From sequence record PZ386975.1: a stretch of DNA of 64,000 nt; one strand, 5' to 3'. Source of the stretch: a phage. The position numbers were made by a program, and so were the translations under genes. Of the stretch, positions 37,828 through 43,965 are shown in pieces (within the stretch, counting starts at the first letter, position 1; each line of letters starts with the position of its first letter). The notes beneath the pieces are model-generated. The model saw nothing but the letters and a program-made list of their open reading frames with translations, was not told the origin of the DNA and did not search any database.

Positions 37828-37856
37828 TTGACTCTTTGAACGGGTTTTTATAGTAT
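37828..37856 (+). promoter_or_regulatory. sigma70-like promoter
   Basis: TTGACT, 17 nt spacer, TAGTAT; upstream of first array gene. Confidence 0.5.
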
Positions 37857-37906
37857 TTGCATCAGACGGGCAATCAAGCCCACTTCCTAAACTGGAGAAT
37901 CTAAAA

Positions 37907-38113
37907 ATGCTTTACAGTCGTGAATTGATGGTTACAACTAACGTTAACACAAAGGTAAAACGTTTTTACATGCAAATTTGTGGCGTATGGTCTAGAATAT
38001 CAGAGGCTGACTATTGCAACTATGTAGGAACAGCTATAGAATCTAATTGCTACCTTACAAGAAACACTAAGAACTTTATAAGACAGACAGCAATTTACTA
38101 CTACGATAAATAA
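37907..38113 (+). CDS. array gene 1, hypothetical (68 aa)
   Basis: Own promoter and RBS. Confidence 0.4.
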   Translation: MLYSRELMVTTNVNTKVKRFYMQICGVWSRISEADYCNYVGTAIESNCYLTRNTKNFIRQTAIYYYDK

Positions 38114-38203
38114 AAAGTACTTTACAGGGGGCTTATAAGGCTGTACAGTAAGCCCCAGATAAAGAGCTTTACCACATTAACCCTTAAACTAGGAGATTCT
38201 AAA
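38113..38203 (+). promoter_or_regulatory. type A promoter-hairpin cassette
   Basis: AAGTACTTTACA, stem GGGGCTTA/TAAGCCCC with variable loop, AGATAAAGAGCTTTACCAC, RBS AGGAGA, ATG. Confidence 0.55.
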
Positions 38204-38587
38204 ATGGCATATCGCGCACCTAAATTCATCAATAAAGACAACTTTCGCAACGCACTGGAGAAGTCACTTGATGAGAATTTTAAAGGCAACGTTATTGTTG
38301 TTCACTCGTTTAATTTCAAGTATGATATCAACGGGAATAAAATCAACCATTACACGGCAACCATGATAGATGGTACACTATCAAGTGAAAAAGCCATTTT
38401 GCATGCACTTGCTGGACGTGGTAAAAACCTGATAAAATGTGATAAGAGACGTTATCAGGGTGGCGCATATGGTTATGATGATGCTGTTTATCATCTTGAA
38501 AATATGGGCTATCAAGTAGAAAAAGCTGGAGCGTCTCAAATAATCGGTAGTGATGGTTACGTAACTATCTTCAAAATTAACAAATAA
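38204..38587 (+). CDS. array gene 2, hypothetical (127 aa)
   Basis: Preceded by type A cassette; ends ...KINK. Confidence 0.45.
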   Translation: MAYRAPKFINKDNFRNALEKSLDENFKGNVIVVHSFNFKYDINGNKINHYTATMIDGTLSSEKAILHALAGRGKNLIKCDKRRYQGGAYGYDDAVYHLENMGYQVEKAGASQIIGSDGYVTIFKINK

Positions 38588-38672
38588 AGTACTTTACAAG
38601 GGGCTTATAGTTCGATAAAGTAAGCCCCAGATAAAGAGCTTTACCACTCAATCCTAAATTGGAGAACTAAAA
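38588..38672 (+). promoter_or_regulatory. type A promoter-hairpin cassette
   Basis: Near-identical to cassette at 41437-41522. Confidence 0.55.
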
Positions 38673-38966
38673 ATGGCTATTATCAAAAACGTTGTAATTG
38701 CTGCAAAAACTCGTGATGACGCTCGCGTTATGGCTAAAAAGTTATGCGGGAAAGTGGTTGACAACGGAAAACAATCTGCTGTAAGGTGGGGCGTGAAGGC
38801 TGATAAACAGTTGAAGTTAAAAAATTCACCGATAAACCTTTTTACATGTGTAAACACTATCGGGAAGACAACTGTATACACGAAAAAGGCATACATTAGA
38901 CGCGTAGCATTAACATCCCCCATTCGTACAATGAGAAGTTATGCAAAGCTGAAAATTAACAAATAA
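38673..38966 (+). CDS. array gene 3, hypothetical basic protein (97 aa)
   Basis: Preceded by type A cassette; ends ...KINK. Confidence 0.45.
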   Translation: MAIIKNVVIAAKTRDDARVMAKKLCGKVVDNGKQSAVRWGVKADKQLKLKNSPINLFTCVNTIGKTTVYTKKAYIRRVALTSPIRTMRSYAKLKINK

Positions 38967-39050
38967 AGTACTTTACAGGGGGCTTAAAAGTTGATATCTT
39001 AAGCCCCAGATAAAGAGCTTTACCACTCAATCCTAAACTGGAGATTCAAA
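38967..39050 (+). promoter_or_regulatory. type A promoter-hairpin cassette
   Basis: Conserved stem with different loop (aagttgatatc). Confidence 0.55.
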
Positions 39051-39563
39051 ATGAAGACTGTAGACGCTACTTTTGAAGTTGTAAAAGAAAAATTCACTAT
39101 TATTTATGAAGCGGTAAATTGCTACGAAGCAAGCCATAATCTTGATAATTGGAAGTTTACAGATGACCATCAAGGCGGCGTGACTGTTAAAAATCCTAAC
39201 TGTCAGCATAATGAATTTAAATATGCAATCCCTTTACATTACAGCCTTAAACAGCTTTCTAGTGACTATGCAAAACAAGGCCGGGAAAATCCATCAAAAG
39301 AGGCTTACGCAAGCTTACAGAAAGAACTAGAAAGAGATTTAGAGGCTTCAGAGTACAACCTTGCCGCGAAAGTTGTCGATGCAAACGGTAACACGGTTTT
39401 AGAAAGTTTTTATCTTGGTTATGCTTTCGATTGGTGCTATCGTGACGGCGATGATTTAGAGGATAGACTAAAAGAAGAGGTGAACAATTCAGACGCAGAA
39501 ACTGAAGTATTAGAACGTTTGGAATCGTTGAAAGACTCAGTGATGAATATCTTTAAGAACTAA
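39051..39563 (+). CDS. array gene 4, hypothetical acidic protein (170 aa)
   Basis: Preceded by type A cassette. Confidence 0.45.
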   Translation: MKTVDATFEVVKEKFTIIYEAVNCYEASHNLDNWKFTDDHQGGVTVKNPNCQHNEFKYAIPLHYSLKQLSSDYAKQGRENPSKEAYASLQKELERDLEASEYNLAAKVVDANGNTVLESFYLGYAFDWCYRDGDDLEDRLKEEVNNSDAETEVLERLESLKDSVMNIFKN

Positions 39564-39654
39564 ATAGATTTCTTTACACGGGGTTATCAAGCTGGTAGGA
39601 TAGCCCCAGATAAAGAGATTTATCAAATAAAGCCCTTAAACTAGGAGATTCAAA
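39564..39654 (+). promoter_or_regulatory. type A-variant promoter-hairpin cassette
   Basis: TTTACA then GGGGTTATC...GATAGCCCC stem with compensatory changes. Confidence 0.5.
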
Positions 39655-39951
39655 ATGAAATTATCAAATAAAGTTCGTGAAAATCTAAGCAAGTTACTAA
39701 ACAAAATTGATTTCATTGAAACATCAAGAAATAATCATGATGTTATGGAATGGTTGCACGGCAAAATAAAAGGCCGTCGTGTAGTGATTTGCTTATGGAA
39801 TAGCTGCAGGGAGTATAAAAAACCTGTATTGCAAGTCAATATTTATGATGACACCTTTAAAAGTCCTGTAAAGTCTAAAAGCGATTTATTAGAATCCTAT
39901 GAGATAACTGTAAATGGTAAAGTGTCACGTAAAGAGGAAACACCATGCTGA
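39655..39951 (+). CDS. array gene 5, hypothetical (98 aa)
   Basis: Preceded by cassette. Confidence 0.4.
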   Translation: MKLSNKVRENLSKLLNKIDFIETSRNNHDVMEWLHGKIKGRRVVICLWNSCREYKKPVLQVNIYDDTFKSPVKSKSDLLESYEITVNGKVSRKEETPC

Positions 39952-42386: not shown

Positions 42387-42389
42387 ACA

Positions 42390-42483
42390 AGCCTGATAAA
42401 AGTCTGTAAATTGTCAATCAACGGGGGGGGGGGGGGTAACAACCTCCCACTACATAAAACCCTTAAACTAGGAGATTCAAAAA
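42390..42483 (+). promoter_or_regulatory. type B-variant cassette containing a 14-nt poly-G tract (42423-42436)
   Basis: TAGACA, 17 nt, TAAATT, then GGGGGGGGGGGGGG...CCTCCC in place of the usual GGGGAGG stem. Confidence 0.5.
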
Positions 42484-42825
42484 ATGGCTTATGTAACTGT
42501 AATTACCAATAAACCGGATTCATCTTGGTCAACTCAAGTAAGCGACAAGATGTCACCTATGCAGTGCCTAAAATACTTTGAGCAATGGAATAAAGGCGAG
42601 GATGTAAGCCCCTTTCAAATAATGCAGATTATTCATGTAGACAATGAAGGGAAGAAAACGACTTTGAACAGTGAGTACTATGCAAGCCGCTTCGAAACGA
42701 GAAGTAAAGCAATGAAGCTTCTACGTGAATCCGGTTATGCTCATATTGCCGCACTAATCTGGGATGACCTGCTAAAAAGTCAACGTATCAGCTATGTAAA
42801 GCCTGAAAAAATATTCATCAGTTAA
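42484..42825 (+). CDS. array gene 12, hypothetical (113 aa)
   Basis: Preceded by poly-G cassette. Confidence 0.4.
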   Translation: MAYVTVITNKPDSSWSTQVSDKMSPMQCLKYFEQWNKGEDVSPFQIMQIIHVDNEGKKTTLNSEYYASRFETRSKAMKLLRESGYAHIAALIWDDLLKSQRISYVKPEKIFIS

Positions 42826-42959
42826 TCAATAACTTACAAAAAACTTTTAAAAAAGTGTTGACAATACCCCTTGACATTGGTAACTTTGTTCGAGGGGGTT
42901 TATCTAAAAGGGATTCACTTAAAAGATTCTTTATAGATAAGCTTAAAAAATTGCTTGCA

Positions 42960-43044
42960 ATCAGCTATCAAAACAAGTAAATTACTAATCAACGGGAGGG
43001 ATGACCTCCCCACTAAATAAAATCCTTAAACTAGGAGAGCCAAA
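42960..43044 (+). promoter_or_regulatory. type B-variant cassette
   Basis: TTGCAA, 17 nt, TAAATT, hairpin GGGAGGG...CCTCCCC. Confidence 0.5.
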
Positions 43045-43575
43045 ATGAACAAGTTTAAAGCTATCAACTTCATTCGTTCAAATGCTGTAATGTCAAAACC
43101 TGTAAAAGACACATACGAATTTCGCTGCAATGGGGTACACTTTGCAACCATCACTAAGTCAGAAAACGGGGTTTATTACATTCATCGCCGTAATGTTTCT
43201 ACTGTTGTAGTCTCTCACTTTATGCAAGCTGTAGCGGAATTATTACCATTATTCTTAGAGATTTATCTAGATGAGTGTAAAAACATTCGTAACCACGTTA
43301 AAAACCTTTTAAACGGTTATAAAATGGCTTATGAACGTTCTATCAAGTCCTTAAACAAGTTCTATAAAGCCCCTATGAATACCGTTTCAATGGCTTACAG
43401 TGTAAGCGGTGAGTTGGTTAGCCTCTTCGAAGTGGAAGAAATCGAACTGCATGACTTGCGCCCTAGTGGTTACTCTAAGACACTGGGAGAAGGCTTATCT
43501 TTCAATATCAAGAACTTAGAAAAAACTTTAAAAGATATTGAAAAAGATATTGACGAAACAATCAAAAATCTGTAA
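43045..43575 (+). CDS. array gene 13, hypothetical (176 aa)
   Basis: Preceded by cassette. Confidence 0.45.
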   Translation: MNKFKAINFIRSNAVMSKPVKDTYEFRCNGVHFATITKSENGVYYIHRRNVSTVVVSHFMQAVAELLPLFLEIYLDECKNIRNHVKNLLNGYKMAYERSIKSLNKFYKAPMNTVSMAYSVSGELVSLFEVEEIELHDLRPSGYSKTLGEGLSFNIKNLEKTLKDIEKDIDETIKNL

Positions 43576-43654
43576 ATTGTCAATCAACGGGGAGGGAATG
43601 ACCTTCCCCACTAAATAAAACCCTTAATCAACTTCCTAAACTGGAGATTCTAAA
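43544..43654 (+). promoter_or_regulatory. type B cassette
   Basis: TTGACG, 17 nt, TAAATT; -10 overlaps stop codon of gene 13; hairpin GGGGAGGG...CCTTCCCC. Confidence 0.5.
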
Positions 43655-43903
43655 ATGGCTACTATCCGCGCAACCGTTAACGAATTTGGCTTCTACTCTC
43701 TGGACGTTAAATTTGACCTTGTAGGTACTGATAACGCCTTTGAAATGGTGAAAGGCCTTATCAGTCAGACCATCAGTGACTACAACCCCTCTGATGAATT
43801 CTGGAAAGAAACAAAACAGGAAGCTCTCAAAGAGGGTTATTCATACCACTACTGGGGTGAAAAAATTGTCTCCCTATACTACGACAAAGATGGCGCTAAC
43901 TAA
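43655..43903 (+). CDS. array gene 14, hypothetical (82 aa)
   Basis: Preceded by type B cassette. Confidence 0.45.
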   Translation: MATIRATVNEFGFYSLDVKFDLVGTDNAFEMVKGLISQTISDYNPSDEFWKETKQEALKEGYSYHYWGEKIVSLYYDKDGAN

Positions 43904-43942
43904 TCGACGCAACGGGGCTATTTAGCCCCAGATACCTTTACA

Positions 43943-43965
43943 GCCCCTTAAATGGGGCTTTTTTA
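43943..43965 (+). terminator. rho-independent terminator closing the plus-strand block
   Basis: agccccttaaatggggct hairpin then TTTTTT. Confidence 0.6.

Follow-up and report, generated by a model that had tools for sequence, protein, structure and literature searches.

Positions 37,828 to 43,965 of a 64,000-nucleotide (nt) stretch of phage DNA (sequence record PZ386975.1; the whole stretch is hereafter called the window) hold an array of small genes interspersed with recurrent cassettes that combine a promoter-like sequence with a hairpin. In the reading that we consider likely, this array consists of about twelve autonomous early-gene modules, each made up of one or two small genes behind a composite cassette of the kind known from T4-like phages as promoter early stem-loops (PeSLs). 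The region 37800-44000 matches 254 phage records, all of them Felix O1-like myoviruses (Felixounavirus, Ounavirinae), with KEP2, bumzen, Mushroom and AYO145A being closest at 88-93% identity, and by these matches the window is assigned to a Felixounavirus, i.e. a Felix O1-like myovirus. A first-pass annotation had placed 14 open reading frames (ORFs) of 67-188 amino acids (aa) between a Macro-domain gene and a plus-strand terminator, and all of these were recovered on the plus strand with unchanged coordinates (Table 1). It had also given each gene one of two cassettes, which held for 11 of the 14 (six of type A, five of type B) and failed for genes 1, 6 and 11. Gene 6 lacks a cassette and overlaps gene 5 by 7 nt, and genes 10 and 11 are probably co-transcribed; the array comprises around twelve modules, two of which are bicistronic.

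The type A cassette, with its TTTACA starting at 38121, 38593, 38972, 39573, 40646 and 41442, consists of this hexamer, 17 nt, TAnnnT, a stem GGGGCTTA/TAAGCCCC and then AGATAAAGAG. Its fourth copy has diverged, with GGGGTTATC/GATAGCCCC as the stem and AGATAAAGAGATTTATCAA as the tail. The earlier description of type A is therefore correct for TTTACA and a −10-like hexamer at fixed spacing in six of six copies, but not for the stem and tail of the fourth copy, and the 8-bp stem that it gave is too short. Type B, whose TAAATT starts at 40297, 41162, 42407, 42978 and 43573, had been described as TTGACA-17-TAAATT; the 17-nt spacer and TAAATT are present in all five copies, but TTGACA in only two, the −35 being TAGACA, TTGCAA or TTGACG in the others, always with the 17-nt spacer. 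A Shine-Dalgarno sequence, AGGAG or TGGAG, lies 7-9 nt 5' of each ATG. The cassettes also run into the genes preceding them, as had been noted before. In type A, the TAA stop codon sits within AAATAAAGTAC as part of the lower stem, and the repeat includes the last codons of genes 2, 3 and 9 (..INK, ..NNK). In type B, the stop codons fall in the promoter hexamers: the TGA of gene 6 inside the −35 TTGACA (40274-40279), the TAG of gene 11 inside the −35 TAGACA (42384-42389), and the TAA of gene 13 being the first three bases of the −10 TAAATT (43573-43578).

Two pairs of copies are nearly identical, again in line with the first-pass annotation: the type A pair at 80 of 85 positions with an exact run of 71 nt (38578-38648 = 41427-41497), and the type B pair at 95 of 102 positions with an exact run of 46 nt. 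The strict patterns of both types occur nowhere else in the window and in none of 100 shuffles, so that 11-13 copies within 6 kb stand against none in the other 58 kb. The motifs are likewise missing from positions 13.5-60 kb of Felix O1, which cover the part of the genome outside the window. As for the degenerate B-like cassette in front of gene 1, four relatives (AYO145A, bumzen, Mushroom and BPSELC-1) have the same promoter joined to a complete type B hairpin.

When the cassettes are folded as RNA, type A forms a hairpin of 57-60 nt with 20 interrupted base pairs, which encloses the whole sigma-70-like promoter. At its base, a lower stem UAAAGU/GCUUUA containing the upstream TAA stop is followed by a 1x1 mismatch and a middle stem CUUUA/UAAAG formed by the −35 region and the conserved tail AGATAAAGAGCTTTA; at the top, a 3x3 internal loop leads to a 9-bp upper stem and a loop of 11-13 nt that contains the −10. 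The tail is thus the 3' half of a long palindrome, pairing with TAAAGTACTTTA, which holds both the stop codon and the −35. The folding energies of the whole type A cassettes lie between −24 and −27.5 kcal/mol, and their z-scores between −2.5 and −4.3.

This structure was examined in an alignment of 44 distinct type A copies from Felixounavirus, Mooglevirus (Citrobacter) and Kolesnikvirus (Erwinia) phages. The 20 pairs are 95.3% paired versus 91.4% in shuffles (reached by 0 of 500), and the covariation score is 0.145 versus 0.084 (0 of 500), comparisons that serve as controls and not as probabilities since the copies are related by descent and duplication. In a slide control, which retains the relatedness among copies, pairing falls to 33-56% when the 3' partner is moved by one to three columns. 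Four pairs change on both sides, including GC-to-UA double changes in pair 9-60 (8 copies) and pair 22-47 (4 copies), and the middle stem is invariant. Moreover, G·U cells far outnumber A·C cells (69 versus 3), which argues for pairing as RNA, and of the sense strand specifically. The promoter is conserved alongside: all 44 copies from the three genera retain the −35 with its 17-nt spacing, and the −10 columns read T in 44/44, A in 44/44, three times any nucleotide, and T in 43/44. The first two of these positions sit in a loop whose other positions vary freely, and an invariant T and A within a variable loop bears the signature of a −10 element in use. Taken together, the pairing and the −10 conservation suggest that promoter and hairpin are each under selection, superimposed on the same 60 nt.

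All 35 distinct versions of type B fold into hairpins of 5-8 bp as well, although their stem sequences vary (GGGGAGGG/CCUUCCCC, GGGAGG/CCUCCC, GGGGG/CCCCC, GGGGC/GCCCC, GUGAGG/CCUCAC). The stem begins 10 nt past the −10, that is, 2-4 nt past the start predicted at the usual distance. The type B subtypes diverge throughout the spacer, and yet both hexamers are kept. Neither hairpin is followed by a U-tract, the A stems continuing with AGAUAAAG and the B stems with ACUAAAUAAA. In the type B cassette of gene 12, 14 consecutive G (42423-42436) make up the 5' arm of the hairpin, where relatives have GGGGAGGG. They could be a homopolymer prone to slippage, with a possible influence on the hairpin, or else an artefact of sequencing or assembly.

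The first-pass annotation had regarded the near-identical cassettes as substrates for homologous recombination and suggested that related phages be compared for cassette-bounded gene swaps. Gene and cassette maps of 12 relatives, with 50-nt identity profiles, together with the array of an Erwinia phage, show that the region is neither syntenic nor invariant, and that genes have been deleted, inserted and replaced by other alleles between cassettes. Felix O1 has neither genes 2-3 nor genes 9-11. At each of the two gaps, a single intact cassette joins the sides, matching the upstream partner in its left flank and the downstream partner in its right flank. Gene 2 is missing in tootiki, gene 1 in AYO145A, bumzen and Mushroom, and gene 14 in Mushroom. 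Conversely, an additional 87-aa gene with a B cassette of its own is present in both AYO145A and SflM004; SflM004 has a further 82-aa gene behind its own A cassette, and BPSELC-1 an additional 63-aa gene, likewise with its own cassette. Genes 5 and 6 are always found together in the 12 relatives. Allele replacements affect three genes. Three phages have a gene 10 allele of 52% identity, the exchanged stretch reaching from the A cassette up to the spacer between genes 10 and 11; four have a gene 14 allele of 60-63% identity, here with a stretch that runs from the B cassette up to the terminator; and in five relatives, the 3' half of gene 3 has given way to an 85-aa allele of about 71% identity.

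The cassettes themselves have moved too. Four type A loop haplotypes are distributed differently among loci from phage to phage, and the same haplotype turns up at more than one locus; in front of gene 2, for instance, different phages have H4, H2, H3 or H1 (haplotype labels carry no meaning for the gene 5 cassette, which is shorter by 1 nt). Chimeras exist in the form of A/B hybrid tails in nataliec, and of copies in SflM004 and NBEco005 in which the covariation of the outer stem is broken. In the Erwinia phage, the array likewise follows the Macro-domain gene and has the same cassettes at 77-84% identity, with homologs of genes 4, 7, 10, 5, 11 and 13 in a different order at 30-51% aa identity (46% for gene 4). 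In total, 289 records match type A and 250 match type B, and a BLAST search with the cassettes at E<=1e-3 matched only Ounavirinae. Further composite forms were seen in Erwinia phage vEam_PM_6 (~8030-8107, 8680-8745) and Citrobacter phage KMM4 (~10290-10355), namely a true terminator with a −35 in its loop (GGGGCTTTACAGCCCC, then a T-run, then TATACT), a GGGGG/CCCCC hairpin with a −10 in its loop, and a hairpin that exactly fills the 17-nt spacer (TTGACA-AGGGGCTTCAAAGCCCC-TACTAT).

From this anatomy, conservation with covariation, restriction to the array and cassette-bounded mosaicism, we infer promoter activity, start sites, an effect of the hairpins on RNA and a mechanism of recombination as follows. 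As DNA, each cassette would act as a host sigma-70 promoter followed by a strong ribosome-binding site (RBS), and as sense-strand RNA it would form a hairpin. Transcription from type A is predicted to start on the 3' side of the internal loop, at AGAUAAAG, with starts at about AGATAAAG (e.g. 38157, 38629, 39008, 39608, 40682 and 41478). Such a start lies inside the hairpin, which would therefore be present only in transcripts that read in from upstream; the module's own mRNA would lack it and begin with an unpaired, AU-rich leader. The type A hairpin might then mark and insulate the 3' end of the upstream message, through attenuation, processing or protection from 3' exonucleases. For type B, the start is predicted 2-4 nt 5' of the stem (e.g. 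~40309-40311), and the hairpin would therefore also be the 5'-terminal stem-loop of the module's own mRNA, an arrangement known to stabilise E. coli mRNAs. Finally, because they are near-identical with exact runs of 46-71 nt, the cassettes could serve as substrates for homologous recombination, by which relatives would have deleted, inserted, replaced and re-ordered whole modules.

Several observations weigh against this reading. Searching the literature turned up neither a transcriptome nor a map of start sites for any Felix O1-like phage, which makes the internal starts predictions. The promoters match 8-10 of 12 consensus positions, which is modest. A scan for intergenic terminators on the plus strand finds only those at 37429-37470 and 43942-43965, at the two ends of the array; the hairpins of types A and B, having no U-tract, were rejected as canonical terminators, so that a 'terminator' in the PeSL sense is unsupported here. 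Possible roles are attenuation of the kind measured for an RB49 PeSL stem-loop, RNase III-type processing and 3'-end protection. The relatedness of the type A copies, given above with the shuffle controls, counts on this side too. Furthermore, the replacement in gene 3 ends at a cassette on one side only, its left end lying inside the gene. Lastly, nearly every spacer holds a cassette, and indels will be flanked by cassettes whatever the mechanism; because flanking is weak evidence by itself, the argument for mosaicism rests on the seamless junctions, the shuffled haplotypes and the chimeras.

How do other explanations compare with that of autonomous modules? One of them holds that a single long early transcript runs from the promoter at 37828, that the hexamers are unused, and that the hairpins are sites of RNA processing or stability, with type A being an RNase III-type site as found between T7 early genes. 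The RNA-like, sense-strand pairing with its excess of G·U over A·C (69 versus 3) suits this proposal, and so does the fact that the full type A hairpin is possible only in read-through RNA. Its geometry, with a lower helix of 11-12 bp, a 3x3 internal loop, a 9-bp upper helix and a loop of 11-13 nt, fits a natural RNase III substrate such as the R1.1-type sites of T7, and there is no U-tract and hence no intrinsic terminator other than at the ends of the array. However, hairpin function alone explains neither the invariant T and A of the −10 in an otherwise free loop nor type B subtypes that differ throughout but keep both hexamers. The −35 and the 17-nt spacing, kept in all 44 type A copies across three genera, also speak against unused hexamers, as do adjacent genes that peak at different times in Felix O1. 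We therefore consider a single processed transcript unlikely. Processing as such is compatible with internal initiation, and may operate alongside the promoters that we favour. Only slightly more probable, in our view, is a reading in which type A has two states, a promoter as DNA and an RNase III-type hairpin in read-through RNA. The 3' side of the internal loop (AGA) would then coincide with the predicted start of the promoter, processed and primary mRNAs would share the same leader, and a protective hairpin would stay at the 3' end of each upstream mRNA. Together with type B, this would form an integrase-free, recombination-driven cassette array for early host takeover, present in at least three Ounavirinae genera and evolved independently of T4-type PeSLs.

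That the cassettes are operators, with palindromic 12-mers TAAAGnnCTTTA binding a dimeric regulator of phage or host for a joint shut-off of early genes, strikes us as very improbable. The 12-bp palindrome does occur twice in type A, over the −35 and over +1, the classical positions for a repressor, and one shared regulator would explain why sequence is conserved and not only pairing, as in the invariant middle stem. Yet the outer half-sites co-vary with the other copy of the palindrome (pair 9-60, GC to UA in 8 copies) and not with their own partner (C12 is invariant), and therefore the symmetry within a copy is lost where the long-range pairing is kept. An asymmetry between G·U and A·C is moreover not expected for a site in duplex DNA, and type B has no comparable palindrome; in view of the covariation pattern, we set the operator reading of these palindromes aside as unlikely. 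Least probable of all, to our mind, is that the repeats have no regulatory role and were left behind by serial tandem duplications or by a small, selfish mobile element, with gene conversion keeping them uniform. Exact runs of 71 and 46 nt and the shuffling of haplotypes do show ongoing gene conversion, which could maintain repeats without selection. Still, the elements persist across three genera whose cargo is only 30-51% identical, they combine position-specific conservation of the hexamers with compensatory changes in the stem, and their position relative to stop codon, RBS and ATG is fixed. They also lack terminal inverted repeats and target-site duplications, and none lie outside the array. 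Hairpin promoters of the type used by the virion RNA polymerase of phage N4 were rejected as well, given the ordinary −35 and −10 hexamers at 17-nt spacing; no virion RNA polymerase is known in the Felix O1-like group.

As to the genes, the first-pass annotation had seen no recognisable motifs in the array proteins, and we can add that Pfam (all 14 proteins) and NCBIfam (genes 1-10) give no family above threshold, with a sub-threshold match of gene 6 to DUF3139. Every array protein matches one PHROG, each a family of unknown function, and an Rfam scan of 37300-44600 at E<=1 found no family. Homologs of genes 5, 6 and 9 (65-112 aa) in Shigella phage vB_SflM_004 (2434-4220) and in GEC_vB records bear the labels 'tail sheath monomer', 'tail tube protein' and 'prohead assembly scaffold protein', which are almost certainly propagated mis-annotations. 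The Macro-domain gene is labelled a putative phosphatase in records of relatives, and the terminator behind it is listed as t13 in the Felix O1 paper (PMC3185647). The terminator at the right end of the array, as found by the terminator scan, reads AGCCCC-TTAAAT-GGGGCT-T6 (43942-43965). In the 220-bp spacer between genes 12 and 13, a 38-aa ORF is annotated in BPSELC-1 and nataliec (42855-42980), and there may be a 15th micro-gene here; the AYO145A record annotates a promoter at the equivalent of 42858-42899.

Table 1. Features of the array and its left flank, in order of position in the window (dG, folding free energy in kcal/mol; z, z-score of folding; H1-H4, loop haplotypes)
Feature	Position	Strand	Remarks
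Macro-domain gene, directly 5' of array	36614..37399	+	Pfam PF01661, E 1e-7
Intrinsic terminator 3' of Macro-domain gene	37429..37470	+	terminator scan; left boundary of array transcription unit
First cassette, degenerate, B-like	37828..37906	+	TTGACT-17-TAGTAT, 4-bp hairpin GGGC/GCCC (37868-37881), RBS
Gene 1, 68 aa	37907..38113	+	phrog_5293
Type A cassette 1	38111..38203	+	H4; −10 TACAGT; dG −24.1, z −2.5
Gene 2, 127 aa	38204..38587	+	phrog_4495
Type A cassette 2	38585..38672	+	H1; −10 TAAAGT; dG −24.2, z −4.3
Gene 3, 97 aa	38673..38966	+	
Type A cassette 3	38964..39050	+	H2; −10 TATCTT; z −3.1
Gene 4, 170 aa	39051..39563	+	phrog_4190
Type A cassette 4, diverged	39561..39654	+	continuous 13-bp outer stem via compensatory changes; dG −27.5, z −4.3
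Genes 5 (98 aa) and 6 (110 aa)	39655..40277	+	7-nt overlap; one bicistronic module
Type B cassette 1	40274..40367	+	TTGACA-17-TAAATT, hairpin GGGGAGGT/ACCTTCCCC, RBS
Gene 7, 90 aa	40368..40640	+	phrog_3436
Type A cassette 5	40638..40725	+	H3; −10 TAAAGT; z −4.3
Gene 8, 134 aa	40726..41130	+	phrog_4327
Type B cassette 2	41128..41232	+	
Gene 9, 67 aa	41233..41436	+	
Type A cassette 6	41434..41522	+	H1; exact 71-nt run in common with cassette 2; z −4.2
Gene 10, 188 aa	41523..42089	+	putative ADP-ribosyltransferase-fold protein
Small hairpin, gene 10/11 spacer	42120..42134	+	GGCCC-ATACA-GGGCC, 5 bp; no promoter-like site; z −1.7
Gene 11, 77 aa	42153..42386	+	
Type B cassette 3	42384..42483	+	TAGACA-17-TAAATT; hairpin 5' arm G14; z −0.3
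Gene 12, 113 aa	42484..42825	+	phrog_4318
Extra promoter-like site	42858..42899	+	TTGACA-17-TAACTT; weak CCCCT/AGGGG hairpin around −10
Type B cassette 4	42955..43044	+	TTGCAA-17-TAAATT; z −2.7
Gene 13, 176 aa	43045..43575	+	phrog_4725
Type B cassette 5	43550..43654	+	TTGACG-17-TAAATT; z −3.2
Gene 14, 82 aa	43655..43903	+	
Cassette remnant fused to terminator	43910..43965	+	CAACGGGGCT-ATTT-AGCCCCAGATAC, then CTTTACA; right boundary of array; dG −26.7, z −4.2

The guess that host-takeover functions are located here has found some support. By reverse transcription PCR (RT-PCR), Felix O1 array genes 16, 20, 21 and 22 were placed at 5 min after infection, and 14, 17, 19 and 23 at 25 min (PMC3185647); the array is therefore early to middle, with neighbouring genes differing in timing. 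Gene 10 appears to have an ADP-ribosyltransferase (ART) fold in which H5 is near-invariant and Y36, Y38 and E86 are invariant, an assignment made by fold, as a profile of its alignment gave only chance-level matches to Protein Data Bank (PDB) sequences (E 0.3-0.8). Bas63 Gp107, the 52%-identical allele of gene 10, is described in the PhageMaP preprint as Tpt1-like by structural similarity, and its gene as more important on one host (PMC11482910). These data on gene 10 would fit the idea of host takeover. Gene 10 also lies in the same early block as the Macro-domain gene, whose product would bind or hydrolyse ADP-ribose.

The array is flanked by further repeats. To its left, the 430-bp ORF-free spacer between the terminator of the Macro-domain gene and the first promoter of the array holds four plus-strand copies of CATTTTnRAAnTGTGCAG(GTA), at 37474, 37547, 37586 and 37631 (37474-37648). 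There is one weak match elsewhere in the 64 kb, and 0 of 100 shuffles reach five matches; the copies could be sites for a regulator or an unusual class of promoter. To its right, between the array terminator and convergent minus-strand genes, 1.7 kb (43966-45656) without ORFs of at least 45 aa are dense in short repeats in both orientations, among them TTGTTAGAAG-type units with a 12-nt period (45390-45454) and CTnTAAAGCCC units. Records of relatives carry 'repeat_region' features at the equivalent of this stretch, which may be an origin of replication, or else a region of packaging or of terminal repeats.

Felix O1-like phages are widely used in the typing, biocontrol and therapy of Salmonella and E. 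coli, and more than 250 genomes are available. Standard, exchangeable modules of promoter and hairpin would explain much of the variation in gene content between isolates, and the array could offer a ready-made, naturally tolerated site with regulatory parts for engineering payload genes. It also points to where functions in host takeover and counter-defence should be sought, one module encoding a putative ART-fold protein near a Macro-domain gene. Moreover, the PeSL principle would reach beyond T4-like phages, suggesting that composite recombination-linker cassettes recur in large lytic phages.

Parts of the cassettes have been recorded before. The Felix O1 paper lists a 57-bp type A sequence (between genes 15/16 and 19/20) and a 39-bp type B one (between 18/19 and 20/21) as direct repeats, and states that the regulation of transcription is unknown (PMC3185647). 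This 57-bp repeat is identical to type A cassette 5. The wV8 record labels cassette sequences as DR_2/3/5/8, and the ASO1A record splits a B cassette into a promoter and, 10 nt further on, a 'terminator' called by WebGeSTer. The repeats are not taken up in the wV8 paper, nor are the cassettes named in the Felixounavirus comparative paper, and in the library of papers searched, none mentions both PeSL and Felix O1. None of these earlier sources reads the sequences as composite cassettes, reports the long type A hairpin or links them to the gain and loss of genes.

Among known systems, the RNase III sites between co-directional early genes of T7 are intergenic hairpins of about 60 nt, with two helices and an internal loop, and cleavage leaves a protective 3' hairpin on the upstream mRNA. 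The interrupted helix of about 20 bp with an internal loop would liken type A to them by geometry. However, T7 sites have no promoters, the early region of T7 being a single unit transcribed from promoters at its left end, whereas type A contains a predicted one. The type B hairpin, placed 2-4 nt past the predicted start, is reminiscent of 5'-terminal stem-loops such as that of the ompA 5' UTR, which stabilise E. coli mRNAs by impeding 5'-end-dependent decay by RNase E; here, the start is a predicted one, and the hairpin would also occur in read-through RNA. With integrons, the array shares the linear arrangement of small genes, mostly of unknown function, that are bounded by structured repeats and are gained, lost and re-ordered. 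Integrons, however, rely on recombination by an integrase at specific sites in folded attC DNA, and there are no promoters in their cassettes, whereas the array has no integrase, a predicted promoter of its own for each module, and exchange that is most simply explained as homologous.

The closest resemblance, already proposed in the first-pass annotation and borne out at every point that a sequence can address (promoter, stem-loop, stop codon, Shine-Dalgarno and ATG, clustering before ORFans, and indels), is to PeSLs. These have been described in the T4-like phages RB49/phi1, T4/PST and KVP40/nt-1 (PMC2839356; Comeau et al. 2014, PMC4122927). A PeSL begins with the stop codon of the preceding gene, set in AT-rich sequence, and comprises an early promoter of the sigma-70 type, a Shine-Dalgarno sequence and an ATG, with a stem-loop of a G-run and a C-run that mostly lies between −35 and −10 or overlaps the −10, and otherwise is just downstream of it; PeSLs are repeated in a plastic region before ORFans, and are associated with indels between close relatives (Arbiol 2010, PMC2839356). 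The cassettes of the array have the same elements in the same order, with the stem-loop overlapping the −10 in type A, where the upper stem spans spacer to +1, and just downstream of it in type B. Many copies are clustered in a plastic region before small ORFans, close relatives differ by indels, replacements and degraded half-copies at the cassettes, and the type A −35 TTTACA fits the T4/PST PeSL consensus TTTACW. In contrast, the lineage here is Ounavirinae and not T4-like, and there is no detectable sequence similarity; membership among PeSLs would be one of anatomy and behaviour, not of descent. Promoter and terminator activities as well as mini-circles have been demonstrated for the PeSLs of RB49/phi1 (PMC2839356), whereas promoter activity in the present array is a prediction from sequence. 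Furthermore, the stems lack a U-tract, the cassettes are confined to a single 6-kb array instead of several regions, two sharply defined families alternate within it, and the interrupted 20-bp hairpin of type A, which encloses the promoter and the upstream stop codon, has not been described for PeSLs. The view that this is a new composite cassette of the PeSL kind, serving regulation and recombination in another phage subfamily without sequence homology, thus appears essentially right, and it differs from PeSLs in that the promoter is enclosed by a long RNA hairpin with covarying pairs, and in that two families of cassette alternate within the single array to which they are confined.

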